From: Candidatus Pelearchaeum maunauluense
GTDB lineage: Archaea; Thermoproteota; Nitrososphaeria_A; Caldarchaeales; Caldarchaeaceae
Assembly (NCBI GenBank): GCA_030059675.1
Contig: JANVYQ010000008.1
Span: forward strand, 1 to 61,950
Length of the DNA stretch: 61,950 nucleotides
Direction: 5' to 3'
Part shown: in pieces, positions 51,602 to 61,950 of the stretch
How positions within the stretch are numbered: the stretch's first letter is position 1
How the letters are laid out: the number at the start of each line of letters is the position of its first letter
Translations under genes and position numbers: made by a program
The notes under the pieces: generated by a model
What the model was told of the DNA's origin: nothing
What the model saw: the letters and a program-made list of their open reading frames with translations, nothing else
Database searches by the model: none

Positions 51602-52561
51602 CGTTTTGTTGGTTAATAGTACTTTCGGTAGGCTTGTAAGTGGTAGTGGGCAACATGTATACATGCTCTGGAAGCACCTTAAAGATAAAGTGAATTTCGA
51701 GGTATGGAATGTTGAGAATATCGGTTACATAAACATCCCCAAGCTTAAGAGCATAACCTTCTACCTAAGAGCTAAGAGTAAGGAAATCCCTAAAGACATT
51801 GACATAATCCACATCCATAACCCAAAGTTTGCAGGGCTCTTCAGGAAGGGTAAAAAGAACATTCTTACAATTCATGGAGAGTATGGGGGGAACTAGAGTT
51901 ACAGTATGGTTTCCTAGCAAAACCAATTATCAAGTATATCGACAGAAACGTGAAGAGAGCTGATGTAATAACGACAGTCTCTCCTCACTGGTCTAGACTT
52001 TATGGTTGGAAGTGGATCCCCAACATGGTAGAGCTATCGGAAATCCGCGGCGTTAAGCCAGCCGATGAGAGTTACCTGCTGTTTGTTGGGAGGGATGACC
52101 TAGTAAAGGATTACCCGTTGTTTAGAAGAATAGCGAGAGAAGCTTATGAAAAACTCGGGATTAAGTCACTAGCTTTAGGCGTGGTAAGGGGTGACACGGA
52201 GTTTCTGAAGCACGCGAAGGTGGCTTGGGAACATGTAATAAGCTTCATGAAGTCAGCCCACGTATTGGTCATAACTTCAAGGTATGAAGGGTTCCCAACC
52301 ACCTTGCTAGAGGCGTGGGCTTCTGGATGACCTGTTGTGGCAAGGGAGATCCCGCCACTAGCTGAGCTCCAGAAGCTCTACCCAGGCTCAATGCTCCTAT
52401 TCGACGGCACCGTAGAGTCTGCATTGTCGAGGATACGCTCTCTACCCCACGAGGATGTTAGGAGGCGTGTTGTAGAGAGCGGACTACAGGTAGTAAAGAA
52501 CTTTGATGCTCCTATAGTGGCAGAGAAGTATTATAGACTCTACAAAGAGGTGATAAGCTAA
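51591..52561 (+). pseudogene. GT4 glycosyltransferase, disrupted
   Basis: DIIHIH, LTIHG, IPNMV, LFVGR..K, SRYEGFPTTLLEAWASG; frameshift at G-run near 51885 and in-frame TGA at 52328-52330. Confidence 0.85.
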
Positions 52562-52893
52562 TGATACTTGATGTGGGTAGTGGGCACAACCCTAGGGGAG
52601 ACGTAAACGTAGACCTATACAGAGATTGGACACCACATACATTTGGCAAGAAAGTAGTGAGGAAGAATCTGGTGCAAGCCGACGCTCACATGCTTCCTTT
52701 TAGGGATTCGTGTTTTGATGTGGTTCTATCTTTCCACCTGTTGGAGCACTTAGATAATCCCATACAAGAGTTGCGAGAGTTCGAGAGGGTAAGCAGACAT
52801 AGAGTAATAGTAGCTGTTCCACACCCCATTCACGAAATAATTGTAAGACTATTTGGCAAGCCAAATCCTAAACATAAATGTTTTTTCTCCTAG
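52561..52893 (+). CDS. Class I SAM-dependent methyltransferase (type 11), possibly C-terminally truncated
   Basis: ILDVGSG, ADAHMLPFRDSCFD, HLLEHL..P. Confidence 0.8.
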   Translation: MILDVGSGHNPRGDVNVDLYRDWTPHTFGKKVVRKNLVQADAHMLPFRDSCFDVVLSFHLLEHLDNPIQELREFERVSRHRVIVAVPHPIHEIIVRLFGKPNPKHKCFFS

Positions 52894-53007
52894 CTTTTTT
52901 AAGAAGAGGGGTTATAGTGTGCGGTTTAGAAAATATAGGATTTCCCTTTTTAGGGGTAGACTGAAGATTCCCTACCCTATCTGGATAATAGCTGATAAGG
53001 TGATAGC

Positions 53008-53295
53008 ATGAGGCTGTTAATTTTGGGTCTTGACGGGTTAGAATATAAGCTGGTTGAAAGATGGAACCTCGAAGTTTTCAAGCAAAAAGTCTACGGCAAG
53101 CATGACGTGTCGTTTTTCAGGAACATATTTACTTCGATAGTTTGGGCTAGCTTCTTACTGGGAGAGAATGCGGAAAAACTTGGATTCACGGTTGAAAGTC
53201 TTAGGGATAGACATGTACCACAGAAAGTCAGACCCTTGTGGAAACTACGGAGAAGGCTCATAAAAAGGAGTCTAGGCAGTTTCAAGCCCTTATAG
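53008..53295 (+). pseudogene. N-terminal fragment of an alkaline phosphatase/phosphodiesterase-superfamily protein
   Basis: LILGLDGL..TSIVWASFLLG; ends just before repeat copy 3. Confidence 0.6.
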
Positions 53296-53309
53296 GTAAT
53301 TCTATAATG

Positions 53310-53389
53310 GATGAACCCATGAGGAGCCCCGAGGCTGATGAATCCCAAGACCTACGCATGCCCATGAAAGACTACGCAGGTCAGAACCC
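53310..53389 (+). repeat. Dispersed repeat copy 3 (inverted relative to copies 1 and 2)
   Basis: Reverse complement of 10108-10187 with one mismatch. Confidence 0.85.
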
Positions 53390-53554
53390 GCACTTCTCAG
53401 GGTCGACCATCCTCTCCATCGTTCTCCTCTTCTTGTTTCTTGCTGCTCTCCTTAGCGGTGTCCCGCACTGCGGGCATCTTAGGGATTCTGTCTTCAGGTA
53501 CTCACAGCAGTGTGAGCAGTACCTGTATCCCTGGCTGTATGAGCTTCCTCCCAA
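53381..53554 (-). CDS. Small Zn-finger protein, 57 aa (not in ORF track)
   Basis: TTG start; GGSSYSQGYRYCSHCCEYLKTESLRCPQCGTPLRRAARNKKRR..; CxxC/CPxCG. Confidence 0.65.
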   Translation of the reverse strand: MGGSSYSQGYRYCSHCCEYLKTESLRCPQCGTPLRRAARNKKRRTMERMVDPEKCGF

Positions 53555-53612
53555 GCCCGCCTATCTCCACGCCTTTAACGCAGGTATATGAGCGTAGCGC
53601 CCGCCGCGCGTG

Positions 53613-54074
53613 CTAGCCAATCCTCGCGTATATATTCTTGGCGCGCTCCATTATCTGCTGCCTCTTCTCCTCGCGCGTGTCCATTATCCTGACCAGCCTG
53701 ATCGCGGCTGGGCATCTCCTCACCGTGTCAACCTGCTCTATGCCAGCCGCCATGAACGCGGCCTCCGCCCTGCTCGGCGAGACAGGTATCTCCAGCCTAC
53801 CGACAGTCTCGCCATCCCTATACCATATCTCCAGTCTGCACCTCCCCGCGCTTCCACGCTCCTGCATCTCCCCCAGCGAGTAGCCTGGGATAGCCGGCGC
53901 GTTGAACACGGCACCGTAGATATCCTCACGCCTAACATCCCTGCCCCTAACCCTCACCTCGAACACCAGCACCGTGTGATGCCCGTTCTTCCTAGCTATC
54001 CGCGGCATCGCCGCGTTAGCATGTGCGGAGCCTAGTATAAGCTCTAGGGGCCTCCCAAGCGTATATCCACGCAC
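53613..54074 (-). CDS. Hypothetical protein at the trailer end of CRISPR array 1
   Basis: 153-aa GC-rich ORF with no recognisable motif. Confidence 0.4.
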   Translation of the reverse strand: MRGYTLGRPLELILGSAHANAAMPRIARKNGHHTVLVFEVRVRGRDVRREDIYGAVFNAPAIPGYSLGEMQERGSAGRCRLEIWYRDGETVGRLEIPVSPSRAEAAFMAAGIEQVDTVRRCPAAIRLVRIMDTREEKRQQIMERAKNIYARIG

Positions 54075-54386
54075 CCCAATAATCTTTCAATTCCTTTTTG
54101 GATTTCTGATGCTCTGATATTATATGCTGGATGACCTCGTCTATTAGCGTCTTTCAATTCCTTTTTGGATTTCTGTTATTTTTATATTTTATACACGAGG
54201 TCCCAGTATCAGCTAAGACAACTCCACTAACAGCTAAAGTCCCGCCAATTCCACTATTCGCCAAGTGCAATGGAGCCATTTCTAAGCACATTTTATATCC
54301 CTCCTTGTTGAGCGGGTGTCAAATCTTCACTCCTTTTTGCTTTAAAAAATAAGGAGGGTTGAGCCATGTAGTAATGTGTCAAATCT

Positions 54387-54485
54387 TCACCCCTTTTCGC
54401 TGATGGATGTCACGCAGCATCCACAGCCGCACCAGCACGCATCCTCTTTCTTCTCTTTCTCAGCCCTTACTTTCTCTATCGGCAT
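54387..54485 (-). CDS. 32-aa Cys-rich, metallothionein-like peptide inside a giant spacer
   Basis: MPIEKVRAEKEKKEDACWCGCGCCVTSISEKG; GGTGA SD 5 nt upstream; divergent from hxlR. Confidence 0.65.
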   Translation of the reverse strand: MPIEKVRAEKEKKEDACWCGCGCCVTSISEKG

Positions 54486-54513
54486 GGCTGTCACCTGCGT
54501 AAATTATTTACAT

Positions 54514-54545
54514 TTGAAAGTATTTATACTTTCAAGAGGAAAGTA
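54514..54545. promoter_or_regulatory. Overlapping inverted repeats in the divergent promoter; candidate HxlR operator
   Basis: TTGAAAGTAT-TT-ATACTTTCAA and TACTTTC-AAGAG-GAAAGTA. Confidence 0.55.
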
Positions 54546-54575
54546 AAGAAAGTCACTTTACGGGGGGATAGTGAG

Positions 54576-54956
54576 ATGGAAAATAACATGCCATTCAAAT
54601 GCTCAATGGTGAAGAAACCCGGTGACCTTTGCCCATGCAGTCTGGAAGGCGTGATGAGCATTATTGGAAAGAAGTGGTCGATTCTCATAATTGGTACGTT
54701 AGGCAATCACAGGAGGCTAAGATACAACGAATTGCAGGAGAAATTGGGAAAGATCAGTCCTAAAACACTTACCGCAAGACTGAAGGAATTGGAGAGTATA
54801 GGGTTAGTAGGCAGACAAAGCTTTAACGAAATTCCTCCAAGGGTTGAGTATTTCTTGACTGAAGAGGGAGAAAAGTTGTTTAATTCGTTGCTCCCTCTTA
54901 TAAGATGGGCGATCGAAAGAGATCATAGATCTTTCAATTTCTTTTTGGATTTCTGA
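54576..54956 (+). CDS. HxlR/DUF24 (MarR-type) transcriptional regulator; C-terminus encoded by a CRISPR repeat
   Basis: CPC..IGKKWSILII..LRYNELQ..ISPKTLTARLKELE..PPRVEYFLTEEG; terminal SFNFFLDF comes from repeat 54931-54955. Confidence 0.92.
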   Translation: MENNMPFKCSMVKKPGDLCPCSLEGVMSIIGKKWSILIIGTLGNHRRLRYNELQEKLGKISPKTLTARLKELESIGLVGRQSFNEIPPRVEYFLTEEGEKLFNSLLPLIRWAIERDHRSFNFFLDF

Positions 54957-55073
54957 GACCCCATGTTTAGTTAAGAATGAAATGTTGTGTGAAATCTTTC
55001 AATTCCTTTTTGGATTTCTGGTACCATTAGGGGTATTGGCTTCATTTCACCACCTCCTTCTTAAAGAAAAAAA

Positions 55074-55211
55074 TTAGGGGGCTGGGACTGTTGCCTCGGC
55101 TCCCCATCCCCCCTCATACCAGCTGCCCCCGCATTCGGGGCAGATTTTCTCGCCGTATGGGCCTTCACGGGGTTTCACCCTCTGGCCGCAGTAGGGGCAT
55201 GGTTCCTTCAT
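55074..55211 (-). CDS. 45-aa Zn-ribbon protein inside the 204-bp giant spacer
   Basis: MKEPCPYCGQRVKPREGPYGEKICPECGGSWYEGGWGAEATVPAP; GGAGGGTG SD; T-tract after the stop. Confidence 0.7.
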   Translation of the reverse strand: MKEPCPYCGQRVKPREGPYGEKICPECGGSWYEGGWGAEATVPAP

Positions 55212-55524
55212 ATCTGCACCCTCCCTTTCAATTCCTTTTTGGATTTCTGCTAAACAAATAATTAACTTTCAACAACAACACGTTCACTTTCAATTCCTTT
55301 TTGGATTTCTGCTCAACCTCGTACACCACGCCCTCAAAAACAGTAATATTCTTTCAATTCCTTTTTGGATTTCTGTCACGTAGAATCTGTATATGCTGGC
55401 GAATGTGTTGATGTTCTTTCAATTCCTTTTTGGATTTCTGGAAGAGCATAGGCCGCGGGTAATACTAAGCGAGCCAGAAGTAAGCTTTCAATTCCTTTTT
55501 GGATTTCTGAGACGTCAGGTGGAG

Positions 55525-55599
55525 GGGGGCCTGAACACCAAGACATTTATTAGCTTATGGCTGGAGCTCCCATGCGCTATATCTTACGGCGCCTGCAAG
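55525..55599. repeat. Copy of the distal leader segment of array 2
   Basis: Matches 61661-61734 with one indel and one substitution. Confidence 0.9.
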
Positions 55600-55686
55600 T
55601 TAGCGACTTGAGCGCGTACGTGTATTTCCCAATAGTTGCCTGGCCGTTCTTCTCTAGACGCTCCACCAGCTGGGCTGGCGCCTGAT

Positions 55687-55839
55687 CTAGGAAGCACCAC
55701 TCGCCTGATCCTGATGGATAGGGCCTCCAGCTAACTCTGTCAAGCATAGCCTCGAGAGCATCCGCAGGTTCCTAAGCTCGCGTTCCAGCTCAGCTATCCT
55801 ATCGTCGACATACCTCAGGACATCCTCGTTTTCAGCCAT
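55687..55839 (-). CDS. Short coiled-coil ORF (50 aa), possibly truncated
   Basis: MAENEDVLRYVDDRIAELERELRNLRML.. Confidence 0.4.
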   Translation of the reverse strand: MAENEDVLRYVDDRIAELERELRNLRMLSRLCLTELAGGPIHQDQASGAS

Positions 55840-55880
55840 GCCGCATTACCCTGCACCTGCTACGGGCTCATATTAATGGG

Positions 55881-56177
55881 CTATGGCCTAAACGCCTCTC
55901 CTGTCCTGATGTTCCTCATCTCTATCCTTCCCCGCTTTTCGGCCAGAGCCACTACCGGCTCTGCGCCGGCCTTCTCCGCCAGCTCGAGAAGAGGCTCCAC
56001 CTCGCTGTACCTCACGTAGGCCCTGCTGTACTTGCACTCCACTAGGACGCTTCTACCCGCCTTCATGCATACGAGGTCTACTGGCTTGCTCCTCGCGCTT
56101 CTCACGACGACCCATCCCCTCTTCAGGAAAAGGTCTCTTACAATATACTCTAGGCGCCTGCCCTTCCTGTAGCTCAT
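55881..56177 (-). CDS. Holliday-junction-resolvase (Hjc)-like PD-(D/E)xK nuclease
   Basis: YRKGRRLE..GWVVVRSARSKPVDLV..LVECK. Confidence 0.85.
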   Translation of the reverse strand: MSYRKGRRLEYIVRDLFLKRGWVVVRSARSKPVDLVCMKAGRSVLVECKYSRAYVRYSEVEPLLELAEKAGAEPVVALAEKRGRIEMRNIRTGEAFRP

Positions 56178-56222
56178 CCATAGCTATTCACGCCGGGCTT
56201 GGATATAAGCAGGTGCGGCCTG

Positions 56223-58556
56223 CTAGCCGATGACTCCAACAACGTCGTGGACGAGCATGTTTGTCGAGCCTGACTCGTCGCGGAATATGCTGGCTCTCAC
56301 CCTGAGGACCCTGCCCTTCTTGATATAGTCGCGCGGGCCTGAGTACATTCCCGAGTCAAGCCTTGCTCTGAACCTGTCGTTTACTATCACTATCGCGTAG
56401 CCCGGTAGTATCTTCTCGACCTCTATGGTGTATATGTCTCCCTGCGCCTTCTTCGAGCTGCTTCTGACCGCTGCCTTGCTCATTATCCTGTTGCCGCTCC
56501 TTGTTATCGCCTCCTTCTTCTCTAGGTACTTCACCGCCTCCGCCACAACGTCGGGCTGGTACTCCTCGAGCTGCTCCAGCAGCTCGGCCTCGCTCACGCC
56601 CCTCGTGGAGCTCTTGAGGATGATCGTGTAAGCATCCTTGGCGCAGTGGTAAACATCCCTGAAGCTCGGGCCTGGCTTCCTGGCTTTCTGCCGGGGGCTC
56701 TCCACGGCGCGCGGCTCCTCAATCTCAATCACCTCCTCGCGCTGCGGCTCCTCCACCCGTATCGTCTCCCCAGCCGGGACGGCCTGTACCTCTATCTCAT
56801 GCTCCTCCGCGCGCCAGGGCCATGGCTCGCCTGCCGCGGGCTTTGGGCCGCGCCTCTCTAGCTTGATGCCCTCAAGCCTCTTGGCTACCTGCGTAAGGAC
56901 GCGCGTCATCTTCCTAGCCCGCTTGTAGCCCTCGCTGAAGTAGTACTCGTCCACCGTGCCCTGGGTGAGCAGTATCGTCACCTTTCCGGGTAGCCGCCTG
57001 CCCGTTCTCCCCCTTCTCTGTATGTATCTTATCCCCGATACCGCTGGCTCGTAGAATATGACGTATCCGCACTCCGGTATGTCCAGCCCCTCCTCGCCGA
57101 TGGCTGTTGCTGCGAGGATGTTGAACTCGCCCCTCCTAAACCTGTTCAGCGTGTTTATCTGCTCCTGCTGGCTCATCCTGGGGCCTGTCTTGCCCTCCGC
57201 CTTTCCGATGAACAGCTCAGCTCTGAGGCCCTTCTCGCGCAGCCTCTCGACGAGTATCTCCGCGGTGTGCCTGATGTTGGCGAACACCATTATCCTGTCT
57301 TCTGGCTTCTCCCTGAGGTGCTGGTCTATCAACGCGGCGATCACCTCCATCTTTGGGTGGTCTACCGCGCACCTCTCAGCCATCTCCACTAGCCTCGTGA
57401 AGTCAGGCGACCTGGCCAGCATCCTGTGGCTCTTGAGCTCGGACTTCTCCACCTCCCTAAGGTATTGGCGGAGGGAGTACACGTGCTGGCTCTCTACCAG
57501 CTCGAGCGCGTGGTATATGCTTAGTATTGTTGAGCATAGCGCCATGTAGTGCAGGTTCTCTCCCCTGACGCCCGAGTCTATCTCCGCTCTAAGCCTGGCC
57601 ATGAGCTGGACTATCACCTTCCTGTTGATGTTCTCTAGGGGCATCCTCAGCAAGCCGAGGCGCTGTAGCTCCTTCGCGCGCTCCTCTATCATCGCCTTGA
57701 CGTGCCTGCGTATGGACTCGTATTCTTCTGGGAGGCTTACCCTAACCCACTTCACCTGCACGCCCGGTATGTGCTCCGCAACCTCCTCGTCCTCCTCGGT
57801 CTTCCACGCTATCTCCTCTATCAGGAGGTTGCGGCATACCTCCATTACCTTGTCCTCCTCGCTTCCGGGGGATGCTGTGAGGGCGAGGATAAGCGGCCAC
57901 GGGCATCTCCTCGAATACTCTCCCGCGAGCCTGGTGTAGGCGTGTCTGTTCCTGCTTCTGTGGCACTCGTCGAAGACGAGCAGGGCAAACTCCTCAAGCG
58001 GCACGTATCCCCTGGCTAGGTCGTTCCAAACAGCCTGGGGCGTTGCGAAGAAAACCCTAACCCTGCTGTCCCTCCACTGCGATGGCCTCCTAGACGAGTC
58101 GCCTGTGATGACTGCTGTCTCCTCGCGCTCCAGCCTGAGGTGCTTGACGAAGCTCTCCCTATGCTGCGCCACGAGCGGCTTGGTCGGAGCCATCATCAAT
58201 ATCCTGCAGCCCGGGTAGCGGTGCAGCAGCTCGGCCGCGACCAGCTCTGCTATGACGGTCTTCCCAAGCGCGGTGGGCAGGACGACGAGGGTGTTCCTCT
58301 CGAGGCAGCGCTCGACAATATCCCGCTGGTAGCGCCTCTCCTCTATCGTCTCCGGCCTCACGAACGGGTGCTCAACAAAGCGTGCCCAGGCCTCCAGCCC
58401 CTGCTCCACCTTCACCTTCCTTATGTGCTTGCATTCTCCAGACCTGAACGTGAATGCGGGGCAGGTGCACCACCAGAGCCCCGCGTGGTCCAGCGTAACC
58501 GTGTATGTCTTGTGGGGCTCCGACTCGCTCTCGACCGGCCACTGCCTAACGCTCAT
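56223..58556 (-). CDS. Hef/FANCM(Mph1)-like SF2 helicase with N-terminal SWIM Zn finger and wHTH/OB-like C-terminus; no ERCC4 nuclease domain
   Basis: WWCTCPAF..CKH; LPTALGKT; APTKPL; FDECH; LTASPG; IGEEGLDIP; IQRRGRTGR. Confidence 0.9.
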   Translation of the reverse strand: MSVRQWPVESESEPHKTYTVTLDHAGLWWCTCPAFTFRSGECKHIRKVKVEQGLEAWARFVEHPFVRPETIEERRYQRDIVERCLERNTLVVLPTALGKTVIAELVAAELLHRYPGCRILMMAPTKPLVAQHRESFVKHLRLEREETAVITGDSSRRPSQWRDSRVRVFFATPQAVWNDLARGYVPLEEFALLVFDECHRSRNRHAYTRLAGEYSRRCPWPLILALTASPGSEEDKVMEVCRNLLIEEIAWKTEEDEEVAEHIPGVQVKWVRVSLPEEYESIRRHVKAMIEERAKELQRLGLLRMPLENINRKVIVQLMARLRAEIDSGVRGENLHYMALCSTILSIYHALELVESQHVYSLRQYLREVEKSELKSHRMLARSPDFTRLVEMAERCAVDHPKMEVIAALIDQHLREKPEDRIMVFANIRHTAEILVERLREKGLRAELFIGKAEGKTGPRMSQQEQINTLNRFRRGEFNILAATAIGEEGLDIPECGYVIFYEPAVSGIRYIQRRGRTGRRLPGKVTILLTQGTVDEYYFSEGYKRARKMTRVLTQVAKRLEGIKLERRGPKPAAGEPWPWRAEEHEIEVQAVPAGETIRVEEPQREEVIEIEEPRAVESPRQKARKPGPSFRDVYHCAKDAYTIILKSSTRGVSEAELLEQLEEYQPDVVAEAVKYLEKKEAITRSGNRIMSKAAVRSSSKKAQGDIYTIEVEKILPGYAIVIVNDRFRARLDSGMYSGPRDYIKKGRVLRVRASIFRDESGSTNMLVHDVVGVIG

Positions 58557-58885
58557 ATCTCCAGCGGCTCCTCTCCCTCCCCGCGCTCTCCCCTCGGATT
58601 AACCTGCTCAATAGTTTTCATGAGCTGCTCCAGCTTTGCGTCGTTGATGATAGCCCTGTAGTCGTTGAGATCATCCAGAGAGCGTAGTATTAGGCCGCGC
58701 CTCTTCTTCGTTTGGCCAGAGGAGTCCACCGGGTTGAGCTCCACAGCTATCTCCGCCGGGCGCGAGCCCTTCCTAGGGATTTTCAGGAGGAATACGCCGC
58801 TGAGAGAGGTCTTTCTACGCTCCCAATCCTTTCCAGACTCGAGGAAGCTCCTCAGCTTCTCGGCCAGGCTCAACCTCTTCAGCAC
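58553..58885 (-). CDS. Archaeal hypothetical protein, translationally coupled to the helicase
   Basis: KDWERRKTSLSGVFLLKIP..ELNPVD..KRRGL; stop overlaps the helicase start (ATGA). Confidence 0.8.
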   Translation of the reverse strand: MLKRLSLAEKLRSFLESGKDWERRKTSLSGVFLLKIPRKGSRPAEIAVELNPVDSSGQTKKRRGLILRSLDDLNDYRAIINDAKLEQLMKTIEQVNPRGERGEGEEPLEI

Positions 58886-58930
58886 CTACCACAGTAAAAG
58901 CGGCCCCAAGGATATATCCGTTCACGGCCT

Positions 58931-59308
58931 TTAGGCGATTAGCCTGCGCCTGCGCGCAGCATCCTCTCCAACGGCCATCCGAAGCATTCGGCGGAAAAGC
59001 TCTAGGACTCCCTCAACATCCACCTCGCTTGGCTTCTTCCTCATCTCCGCCAGCGCCAGCGCATCCTCTATCAAGCCAAGCGAATCCCTGAAGTATGCGA
59101 CGATTATCTTCGCCCGTGCCGTGGCGTGCCAGGGGTCTGAGACGCCGCGCCTAGCCTCCTCCAGAAGCCTCCTAAGCTCTTCCGCCAAAACAAGCCTACT
59201 AGAGCTGCCGACATATTCTCTAGCAGCTATCCTCGGGAGGAGGAAGAGCGCGGCTGAGGCAACTCCCTTTAGCTCGGCCAGCCCGCGCGCCTTCTCCGAC
59301 TCCAGCAA
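58931..59308 (-). CDS. Hypothetical helical protein
   Basis: 125-aa ORF; TATA-like TTATAT about 30 nt upstream. Confidence 0.5.
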   Translation of the reverse strand: MLESEKARGLAELKGVASAALFLLPRIAAREYVGSSSRLVLAEELRRLLEEARRGVSDPWHATARAKIIVAYFRDSLGLIEDALALAEMRKKPSEVDVEGVLELFRRMLRMAVGEDAARRRRLIA

Positions 59309-59470
59309 ACCCTCAACAGGAGATAGCGGCCCATATACGATATAAGCGTTCTAGGCTCTGTGTTAGCTTGTGGTTTGCTCTGCGGGCCGGCGCCCTCAAG
59401 GCTTATATATGCTCCGCATTTTTTGGAGGGGATGGGGTGTTTTGTCGTCTTCTCCTGTTCTGAGGCTTGG

Positions 59471-61519
59471 CTTTCAATTCCTTTTTGGATTTCTGAATGG
59501 AGTATGGAATCGCGGGGTAGTGAAGTGGTACTGGTTGCCAGAATCAAGAAAAACACGACCCACTAACTTCAAGTGGTTTTTGTTTGTCTTATGCGTTTAT
59601 ATAATTCCTGTTGAATTAGAGGTAGTCTAAAACTAGTTAGGCGGACATCATGTTGCATTCCGTCCTCATCCGTAAATGAGATAACTAGAACCTGCTTTCT
59701 ATTCTTCCTAGAGTAACCGATCAGTGCCCCTACCAGTAGGCCGGCTAAGACACCCAATGCGCCTATAAACAACACAAACAAAATCCCCAATAGAATAGCG
59801 CCGACTAACGCGTAGCCTACAATCTTCCAACCAGATGTCTCCTCCTCAACAACGTTCTGCATCATTATTATCTTATTGTATGGAATTCTAAACCTCCCAC
59901 CCCCCTCTATTTCCACATCCACATAATCATTTTGAAAGAAAAGCGATACTTGGTTAGGAAGCGGATAACCAACATGTCCCCCCAAATACTGGATATTAGA
60001 GTACCTAATGGGCTCCAATACCATAAACGTAAGAGAAACCTTCTTGTTTATATTTTTTACTAAGTCATTTTTACTATCGTTATTTCCTAGTTAGCGTTTG
60101 CCACACTTTCAATTCCTTTTTAGATTTCTGAGACACATTACTAAGGTCTTTGCTAGGCGTGTTAAATGAAACTTTCAATTCCTTTTTGGATTTCTGAGAT
60201 TCAGGGTGGGAGGGTCGTCATACTTGAGACCGAGAGCTCTTTCAATTCCTTTTTGGATTTCTGAACCCCGGCGTTGAGCGCTTCGCGGTCTTCACGAACC
60301 AGTATGGTACTTTCAATTCCTTTTTGGATTTCTGTGGTTGATAAGACCGCTCCCGTTCTCTACAGCCCGATACCTTTCAATTCCTTTTTGGATTTCTGGA
60401 CTTGGAAAACACCATGCTATGGCTTGAGGACATGGTGAGCTTTCAATTCCTTTTTGGATTTCTGTAGGATATTGGGCTGGGCTGGCAGTAGATGATTGTC
60501 TCCTTTCAATTCCTTTTTGGATTTCTGAAAGGAAAAGAGGGTTTAATCCGAATAATACTCTCTAACCAACTTTCAATTCCTTTTTGGATTTCTGAGATAT
60601 GGCAGACGCCGAAACAGGGCGTCTGCCCAGCCGACTTTCAATTCCTTTTTGGATTTCTGGAGGCACGACAAAACCTCAAGCGGTTCCTAACAAAACTGAC
60701 AAACTTTCAATTCCTTTTTGGATTTCTGAGACGTCAAAGAGCTGAGCGTAGAAGAACACGGAGAACAATCTTTCAATTCCTTTTTGGATTTCTGTTCGAA
60801 CGGTTGTCAGGTGTGAGCTCGTGAACAAAGAGCTTGCTTTCAATTCCTTTTTGGATTTCTGGGAATCCATATATAACACGATGGAAAAACTAGCAAACGT
60901 GCTTTCAATTCCTTTTTGGATTTCTGGTGGCTTAACAAAAGGCGGCCGGCCTACGCAGCCGCCATACAATACCTTTCAATTCCTTTTTGGATTTCTGCCG
61001 GTGTGATTGGGATAACTGGACTATCGTCGGCACGATCTTTCAATTCCTTTTTGGATTTCTGACACGGCTGTACGACGACGAGCCAACAAGATGTCTTATA
61101 TCTTTCAATTCCTTTTTGGATTTCTGTCTCTTTTTCATTTTTTCTTTTTCTAGGCTTTCTAGGCTCCTTTCAATTCCTTTTTGGATTTCTGAGGGTGAGA
61201 GTAGAAGCAGGGTTGGACATCCAGCACCTTTCCCCTTTCAATTCCTTTTTGGATTTCTGAACTCCTTGAAATCCCATTCAGCGGCGGCGGCACTGACATC
61301 TTTCAATTCCTTTTTGGATTTCTGCTATGTTTTGAGGGAGTTCGTTGAGGACGGAGAAGAGAGCTTTCAATTCCTTTTTGGATTTCTGGGCGCTTCCTGA
61401 GGAGAGGTATTTTGAGAACAGCTTATTCGCCTTTCAATTCCTTTTTGGATTTCTGCCAAATTTCTTGGGAGGTCGATGGGGTCGCTATGAGAATCTTTCA
61501 ATTCCTTTTTGGATTTCTG
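59471..61519 (-). CRISPR. CRISPR array 2: 23 repeats, 21 normal spacers (38-46 bp) and one 610-bp gene-carrying spacer at the trailer end
   Basis: Same 25-bp repeat at 59471, 60106 (1 mismatch), 60172 ... 61495; AT-rich leader follows 61519. Confidence 0.97.
59569..60024 (-). CDS. 151-aa membrane protein (YLGGH motif, PH-like beta domain with Gly-rich TM hairpin) inside a giant spacer
   Basis: Intact AT-rich ORF; A-rich BRE plus TATAAA at about 60047-60058, 23-28 nt upstream of the ATG. Confidence 0.8.
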   Translation of the reverse strand: MVLEPIRYSNIQYLGGHVGYPLPNQVSLFFQNDYVDVEIEGGGRFRIPYNKIIMMQNVVEEETSGWKIVGYALVGAILLGILFVLFIGALGVLAGLLVGALIGYSRKNRKQVLVISFTDEDGMQHDVRLTSFRLPLIQQELYKRIRQTKTT

Positions 61520-61734
61520 TGAAGCTATTTATTTTGGTTTGTTGGTTGTATTTTAGTTTTTCTTTTTGTTGGTTCGTCAATTGGCGAATGTTGTTGTTTT
61601 CTTGGGATTTTTTCGGGAGTCGCTGTTCAGCACCCCTGCTGCGGCCCAGTTCTTTATATAGGGGGCCTGAACACCAAGACATTTTTAGCTTATGGCTGGA
61701 GCTCCCATGCGCTATATCTTACAGCGCCTGCAAG
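61520..61734 (-). promoter_or_regulatory. CRISPR leader of array 2
   Basis: Non-coding, AT-rich, TATATAAA on the minus strand near 61652-61660; distal part conserved beside array 1. Confidence 0.8.
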
Positions 61735-61823
61735 GCGTCCTATATATTGGCTAAAGGCCACCGTAGTTTTCTCAAGTACCTTACTAGCCCTCGGGTCTGC
61801 GTCCTATATATTGGCTAAAGGCC
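61735..61823. repeat. Perfect 25-bp direct repeat flanking a 39-bp unique insert
   Basis: GCGTCCTATATATTGGCTAAAGGCC at 61735-61759 and 61799-61823. Confidence 0.9.
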
Positions 61824-61950
61824 CATCGCATACACGTATGCCTCAACGCTCTTCCATGAGGTCTTGGTTAAGTCACGCATATTTACCTCAAGTTCATTTT
61901 GGCGTGAATATCTGAGACCACATCTCGTATGGTATTGTATATTCTATTTG

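Follow-up and report, generated by a model that had tools for sequence, protein, structure and literature searches.

Canonical CRISPR adaptation depends on Cas1-Cas2, with trimming by Cas4 in type I-A systems, and is generally regarded as a process that measures spacer length tightly. The locus described here resembles the expected product of that pathway in that a 204-bp unit lies between intact repeats of a regular, leader-bearing array in a genome with type I-A genes. However, the unit comprises 204 bp and a whole gene, whereas its neighbors measure 37-46 bp; moreover, no protospacer or PAM was found for it, and no cas1 was found in the assembly.

Two further systems invite comparison. Medvedeva et al. 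reportedly described, in 2019, virus-borne mini-CRISPR arrays, in which the array is located in the virus. As in those arrays, repeats at our locus adjoin mobile-element genes, but here it is mobile-element-like DNA that lies inside a chromosomal array. We rejected the idea that the window array is itself a virus-borne mini-array, given that it lies on a 62-kb contig that also bears transporter-like ORFs and, adjacent to the array, helicase and Hjc resolvase genes conserved in seven relatives. The second system is CreTA, the CRISPR-repressed toxin-antitoxin module, in which a pseudo-spacer between degenerate repeats is expected to match in part the control region of the adjacent gene. It too places a small gene beside repeat-like elements in a CRISPR locus, and degenerate repeats do precede the small Zn-ribbon gene (ZnR) at the homologous loci L086-L091; by contrast, the repeats around the 204-bp unit are perfect. 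A CreTA-like module was also rejected by a seed test that took in six window spacers and the conserved spacer of L088: the longest word shared between the spacers and the insert or its surroundings was 6-7 nt, which stays below the 95th percentile of shuffled sequences (8-9 nt).

Our literature searches turned up no account of long, gene-bearing units in the arrays of archaea; there is no mention of long spacers in the sections consulted of PMC10547907 and PMC3383453. Here we describe such a unit, the small-protein family to which its gene belongs, and similar units in the same genome and in related arrays.

Results

Two CRISPR arrays, A and B, lie in the final 8 kb of the window, by which we mean the whole stretch of DNA that was analyzed (61,950 nt). 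Their 25-nt repeat reads CTTTCAATTCCTTTTTGGATTTCTG on the plus strand. Allowing up to two mismatches, the genome contains 35 copies, 32 in the window and 3 on another contig, C2. Among 76 genomes of the class, only the host genome carries the exact 25-nt repeat. Named relatives identify this class as the Caldarchaeales lineage. The host assembly, a draft of 21 contigs, is 94% complete and contains type I-A interference genes and a Cas6 gene; cas1 (PF01867) was not found in it.

The features of array A needed for what follows are these:

54084..55509, minus strand: array A, with nine repeats and, from leader to trailer, units of 44, 40, 39, 37, 204, 40, 755 and 42 bp
55510..55600, minus strand: leader of array A; contains a 75-nt block that has four copies in the genome
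55225..55249, minus strand: leader-side repeat of the 204-bp unit, a perfect 25/25 copy
55021..55224, minus strand: over-length spacer of 204 bp, GC 56%, single copy in the genome
55217..55224, minus strand: Shine-Dalgarno-like (SD-like) site GGAGGGTG, 5 nt before the ATG at 55211
55074..55211, minus strand: 45-aa Zn-ribbon gene, ZnR, of an unannotated small-protein family; protein MKEPCPYCGQRVKPREGPYGEKICPECGGSWYEGGWGAEATVPAP, with CPYC and CPEC knuckles and a TAA stop
55063..55073, minus strand: T7CT3 tract TTTTTTTCTTT, immediately 3' of the ZnR stop codon
55047..55057, minus strand: second SD-like site GGAGGTGGTGA, upstream of the ATG at 55045
55021..55045, minus strand: first 8 codons (MKPIPLMV) of a second ORF, which the repeat truncates
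54996..55020, minus strand: trailer-side repeat of the 204-bp unit, a perfect 25/25 copy

We take the minus strand to be the transcribed one because a conserved 75-nt leader block flanks each array on its right, because the two mismatched repeats sit on the array side away from that block, and because the repeat ends in ATTGAAAG, which is presumably the archaeal crRNA tag. The other two copies of the block are both on C2, one next to a lone repeat (C2:68545) and one where the contig ends. Around the former, C2:68455-68569 (locus L002 in the host genome, G000) comprises a leader copy and a single repeat without a spacer, and a second HxlR paralogue is found about 1.5 kb away (C2:66705-66992). 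The leader of array B (window 61520-61734) has about 140 nt of A-rich sequence between the 75-nt block and the first repeat, where array A has 15 nt, and the variant junction seen in the array B leader also terminates contig C2.

Both arrays are of archaeal type I-A style, and their 27 regular spacers fall within the narrow range of 37-46 bp, outside which the 204-bp unit clearly lies. In array B, a final unit of 610 bp comes after 21 units of 38-46 bp, so that long inserts make up 3 of the 30 array units in the window. The initial annotation had placed a 204-bp spacer at 55021-55224, bounded on one side by the repeat at 54996-55020, and had read along its transcribed strand an SD, a 45-aa CPYC..CPEC ORF, a T-tract, another SD and a truncated MKPIPLMV start; coordinates, content and order all agree with our own reading, which, like every statement here on the structure of the unit, is drawn from the draft assembly. 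Both SD-like sites can pair with the 3' end of the host 16S rRNA (GGATCACCTCCT), whose complement they match, and the T7CT3 tract looks like a putative archaeal terminator. Rfam gave no match over window positions 52000-61950, and folding of the predicted 229-nt processed RNA revealed nothing out of the ordinary (z = -0.75). An IS element or MITE was considered for the 204-bp unit and rejected because the unit has no terminal inverted repeats, no transposase-like ORF and no second copy in the genome.

The 45-aa ORF has relatives. Pattern scans confirmed by tblastn identified homologues at about 70 loci, in Caldarchaeales genomes and hot-spring-type metagenome contigs, with GC contents from 31 to 63% and with 40-61% identity to the window protein. 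The species genomes contributed 17 loci, five of which were accepted as true members (L025-L028 and L032), and the metagenome contigs contributed 63. L029 was rejected as a member, being a multi-ribbon protein instead. At 80% core identity, 73 loci grouped into 23 clusters, one of them (L029) spurious. A complete HMMER scan of 1.84 billion representative proteins returned 11 others matching the ORF at E<=1e-3, of which 7 are proteins of 41-60 aa with an identical layout; the named relatives come from Caldarchaeum and Calditenuaceae MAGs. A word-indexed search of 5.8 billion proteins matched the window protein only to itself.

The family consensus, MTEPCPFCGARIxPIxxGxFKKCPxCGGxWYESGGGG, leads into a tail rich in Gly and Ala. 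The window copy retains all ten residues that are invariant in an alignment of 24 sequences (E3, P4, C5, P6, C8, R11, K22, C24, C27 and W31), lacks the Gly-rich tail, and matches the family HMM with an E value of 1.7e-16. Searched against the 76 class genomes, the family profile gave strong matches (E<=5e-17) in 10 genomes other than the host, and its sole match in the host genome is the copy in the array. Judged by this conservation, the window ORF is a real gene of an unannotated family of small Zn-ribbon proteins. Absence of coding conservation had been named in the initial annotation as one finding that would speak against its reading; with about 70 homologous loci, that conservation is present, and the view of the unit as a contiguous, gene-dense slice, with a small Zn-ribbon gene in full and the opening codons of another gene, is supported.

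The window protein is confidently predicted to adopt a Zn-ribbon fold: an AlphaFold2 model has pLDDT values of 81, 86 and 88 in successive blocks over residues 1-30, with short paired strands around both knuckles. Comparison of this model with the PDB by Foldseek retrieved only generic Zn ribbons (best E value 0.4), the ESM Atlas likewise placed the protein with generic Zn-ribbon clusters, and PADLOC gave no match. All Pfam matches of the window protein were below threshold, the best being to PF13248, which scored 18.7 bits where the cut-off is 27. The family shares with PF13453 (Zn_ribbon_TFIIB) and PF14354 (Lar restriction alleviation) an arrangement of two CxxC knuckles followed by G-x-W, and sub-threshold matches to these two entries were seen in 10 and 13 of 24 members, respectively; however, no member reaches the gathering score of either. 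The family tree leaves 19 of its 22 forks open. Within it, the window protein has the longest branch (1.42) and is the most divergent member.

Most homologues occupy either mobile-element-like or ordinary chromosomal settings. At least seven loci (L046, L047, L050, L056, L060, L069 and L092) share one operon, in which genes for an RHH protein, a 170-aa protein, ZnR, an AAA_24 ATPase, a wHTH protein and a PD-(D/E)XK nuclease follow one another. At least five others (L042, L045, L049, L055 and L063) share a packed block that combines ZnR with a D12 adenine methyltransferase (Dam methylase). In both arrangements all genes are co-directional and overlapping, a packing like that of archaeal mobile elements. 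At another locus (L067:832-3903), ZnR lies 15 nt upstream of a gene for a 963-aa Eco57I-like type IIG restriction-modification protein; the downstream start at L051 is similar to that in L067. Chromosomal-looking sites include one beside rpS28e/L7Ae (L112) and one beside reverse gyrase (L113), and the chromosomal site in G012 has no synteny with the host genome. No gene is conserved downstream of ZnR among 46 distinct loci. The suggestion that the unit derives from a virus- or plasmid-type operon therefore fits one part of the family, that of the two operons, and does not extend to the homologues at chromosomal sites.

Some homologues lie within or near CRISPR arrays of their own. At L086, L088, L089 and L091, arrays built on a repeat (GAATCTCAAAAAGAGAATTGAAAG) unlike that of the window have ZnR as their last unit, on the crRNA strand, between a degenerate repeat and the terminal repeat; the first bases of the terminal repeat provide the ZnR stop codon, and Csa5, Cas7 and a Cas5-like gene come after it. 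L086 and L088 have an identical ZnR unit and no other spacer in common, which implies that this unit is older than the rest of these arrays. Over the first 50 codons of the array-embedded copies, pN/pS is 0.18-0.35, with one-sided Fisher P values of 0.10, 0.015 and 0.004 for three pairs, each based on 4-7 changes per class. The tail varies freely and is frameshifted in L091. From these substitution patterns, the array-terminal ZnR of L086-L091 is apparently under purifying selection.

Elsewhere the association is looser and again on the same strand. An array lies 175 nt upstream of ZnR in L054 and L059 and 1.26 kb upstream in L073, L074 and L076; array repeat remnants lie about 0.35-0.4 kb upstream in G063, where ZnR carries a stop codon; and in G044 an array lies about 190 nt downstream. 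Counting the window as its own cluster, array-linked ZnR occurs in 6 of the 23 clusters and is co-oriented with the crRNA in all six. By a rough reckoning, well below one cluster would be expected next to an array by chance. Among the nine species-representative loci in which ZnR was re-found, an array is present within the fetched flanks only in G044, in addition to the repeat remnants of G063. The two array-embedded cases, that of the window and that of L086-L091, are not sister lineages in the tree, open as most of its forks are.

The 204-bp unit is one of four long inserts in the host genome, of 204, 435, 610 and 755 bp; three more occur in related arrays, of 840 bp (L059) and of 521 and 246 bp (both L089). 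The larger host inserts and the 840-bp unit are as follows:

54176..54930 of the window, no single strand assigned: 755-bp insert in array A, with an HxlR gene on the plus strand, a Cys-rich ORF of 35 aa and a different direct repeat of 26 nt, present twice
59496..60105 of the window, minus strand: 610-bp insert, last unit of array B, with a complete 151-aa ORFan on the crRNA strand and an AT-rich upstream region
C2:370509-370993 of the host genome (locus L003): two perfect repeats and the 435-bp insert between them, an internal fragment of an ORFan antisense to the crRNA
L059:1493-2332: 840-bp unit in a 29-repeat array of a related metagenome contig, with a TATA-like start and a 164-aa triple Zn-ribbon ORF

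In the 755-bp insert, the gene for the HxlR-family regulator (Pfam E value 8.9e-24) runs opposite to the crRNA strand with its 3' end extending into the repeat; the 26-nt direct repeats are 60 nt apart and absent from the rest of the genome. The ORFan of the 610-bp insert has a weak PHROG match (E value 0.0037), and a protein search returned only the ORFan itself. The reading frame of the 435-bp insert is open through both of its repeats, no homologue of the fragment was found among longer proteins or in 75 relatives, and the leader block recurs in inverted orientation where the contig ends. The 840-bp unit also holds the beginning of a membrane ORF that the repeat truncates, and it matches the 204-bp unit in architecture. 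In the seven long inserts together, the main gene is sense in four and antisense in three, and all seven lie in the trailer half of their array. For the 755- and 610-bp inserts, the adjoining repeat toward the leader has a mismatch. Over-length, gene-bearing units are thus a recurrent feature, and Caldarchaeales arrays sometimes store whole genes, not short tags. The initial annotation mentioned neither these further long inserts nor the recurrence of ZnR within and close to other arrays.

No source of the 204 bp emerged from any search. Phage and plasmid records, queried by blastn and tblastn, gave no donor, with either nothing or chance matches of 30 nt. In IMG/VR, a motif scan gave eight loci, all generic Zn ribbons; a scan with one family alignment (A1) confirmed none of 169 candidate stretches; and a scan with another (A3) gave seven loci, of which three (L134, L139 and L140) are unrelated proteins and the other four match over 14-17 residues only. 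The 204-bp DNA gave only chance matches, of at most 27 nt, in the 76 class genomes, and a metagenome scan found no donor for the unit. The virus or plasmid donor proposed at the outset was thus not recovered from the phage and plasmid records, IMG/VR, the class genomes or the metagenome scan. Nor was a donor in which the second frame goes on: starts resembling MKPIPLMV (at most two mismatches) were absent from the genome and from all fetched loci, and no homologue, among 46 distinct loci, is followed by such an ORF. Finally, 186 spacers from the window and related arrays had no match in the mobile-element-like contigs or elsewhere; the sole non-self matches were trailer spacers common to sister contigs.

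Discussion

The account that we favor, with a probability of about 0.5, is that a slice of foreign DNA, longer than a normal spacer, entered the array at a CRISPR repeat, with duplication of the repeat on both sides, likely by the adaptation integrase. The source would most likely have been a mobile element of Caldarchaeales, and the likeliest agent would be the integrase acting on a fragment that had never been trimmed to ~40 bp. By chance, this slice would have spanned the whole ZnR gene and 8 codons of the next gene. Once in place, the unit would be transcribed from the leader, and Cas6 would excise an RNA of ~229 nt that begins with the 8-nt tag AUUGAAAG, or of ~170 nt if the T7 tract terminates transcription. 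The first ~40 nt of the released RNA could act as a guide, the T7 tract would probably reduce transcription of the four older repeats behind it, and the ZnR ORF may or may not be translated. In the window itself, we see no sign that ZnR has been kept for function.

Several observations favor integration. Perfect 25/25 repeats on both sides of the 204 bp are what duplication on integration should leave. The boundaries of the unit ignore genes, since it begins 13 nt before the first ORF and stops inside the second, and it bears no hallmarks of a transposon. The internal ORFan fragment on C2 provides a sister case, and long inserts recur both in the host and in related arrays. Their mixed gene orientation is to be expected if capture occurs regardless of expression, and the ORFans without relatives in three of the inserts are to be expected of mobile-element "dark matter". 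The occurrence of ZnR homologues in mobile-element-like operons, the long branch of the window copy, and the presence in the genome of type I-A genes including Cas6 point the same way. With no donor or protospacer found, the case for a foreign origin of the 204 bp draws on its composition and on the settings of its homologues.

The lack of a donor or protospacer also counts against integration, as does the failure to find cas1 in a 94%-complete assembly. In addition, the position of all seven long inserts in the trailer half fits slow accumulation at least as well as it fits one-off integrase errors, and a ZnR that is embedded and constrained in an unrelated array hints at selection rather than accident. 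Other explanations stay alive on three counts: the trailer bias, the mismatches in repeats adjoining the 755- and 610-bp units, and the constraint on ZnR in L086-L091.

The best surviving of these, although we consider it unlikely, holds that ZnR is an array-linked gene kept by selection, expressed through transcription of the array and useful to the host, whatever its route into the array, with the window copy as one instance; it might bind nucleic acids to regulate or assist CRISPR, or it might interfere with mobile elements that carry homologues. The loci L086, L088, L089 and L091, where ZnR comes last in the array and before cas genes, speak for it, in view of the unit that L086 and L088 share despite otherwise unshared spacers and of the low pN/pS of the embedded copies. 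The same-strand arrays near ZnR in L054/L059, G063, L073/L074/L076 and G044, the co-orientation with crRNA in all 6 array-linked clusters of 23, and the intact invariant residues and good SD of the window copy also agree with it. However, just one of the nine species-representative loci has an array within the fetched flanks, besides the remnants in G063, most homologues lie in mobile-element-like or chromosomal settings, and the two embedded cases are not sister lineages. PADLOC found no match, the selection test involves 4-7 changes per class, and the window copy, which lacks the Gly-rich tail, is the most divergent of all.

Recombination without the integrase, which we judge rather improbable, could also have built the unit, either by crossover at a repeat with an element or another array or by illegitimate insertion into an older spacer whose traces were later lost. 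Scattered copies of repeat and leader exist (C2:68455-68569 and the 435-bp site near the end of C2), the older ends of arrays are where long inserts concentrate, and the mismatch in the repeat that borders the 755- and 610-bp inserts toward the leader is of a kind common in terminal repeats. Because of that mismatch, these two "spacers" may instead be gaps between mini-arrays. The 204-bp unit fits such a history less well: both of its repeats are perfect, and its SD begins at the first base past the repeat, which leaves no room for the remnant of an old spacer. Furthermore, a non-exhaustive look for repeats showed no array on the mobile-element-like contigs listed, and 25 nt is a short stretch of homology.

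A bolder reading combines integration with use of the gene. Caldarchaeales arrays would then be, in part, sites of gene capture and expression, taking in slices of mobile-element DNA of 0.2-0.8 kb, retaining at least ZnR under selection, and yielding, by leader-driven transcription and Cas6 cleavage of the flanking repeats, an SD-led mRNA that is translated into a small nucleic-acid-binding protein; that protein would act on CRISPR function or against elements carrying homologues. We hold this reading, the last part included, to be a doubtful proposition. An array-expressed captured gene is the most interesting reading and a minority bet, while the finding from which it starts is real, recurrent and testable.

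An error of assembly, in which the 204 bp were wrongly joined into array A, is a much poorer candidate. The assembly is metagenome-derived and a draft of 21 contigs, and CRISPR arrays are hard to assemble. Joining on two sides, however, requires a segment already bounded by the 25-nt repeat, and the occurrence of that repeat in the host alone among 76 genomes makes such an error unlikely; like structures are also present in independent assemblies (L059, and L086, L088, L089 and L091). Finally, the idea that the spacer is non-coding and the ORF open by chance, to which its 45 codons, GC-rich sequence and below-threshold Pfam matches might point, is scarcely credible in the face of family membership at E values of 1e-6 to 6e-4 against 1.84 billion proteins, homologues at about 70 loci across GC contents of 31-63%, ten retained invariant residues, and a confident Zn-ribbon model (pLDDT 81-88 over residues 1-30).

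The observations bear on how arrays are built. Recurrent gene-bearing units of 0.2-0.8 kb would mean that length measurement fails or is bypassed across an archaeal order, and such arrays would show the import of intact genes into CRISPR arrays. The occurrence of ZnR between repeats in two unrelated arrays, seemingly under constraint in one of them, raises the testable possibility that crRNA processing may also release a translatable message. More broadly, our analysis defines a previously unnamed family of small proteins common to Caldarchaeales chromosomes and presumed mobile elements, which often neighbors defense loci, including CRISPR arrays and a type IIG restriction-modification gene.

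Outside the arrays, the window contains an element of ~80 bp (53310-53390) that occurs with 91-99% identity at no fewer than eight further sites in the genome, namely, C8:10108, C20:101733, C15:12326, 40005 and 42449, C18:517, C14:11774 and C2:230091. It may be a MITE-like repeat.
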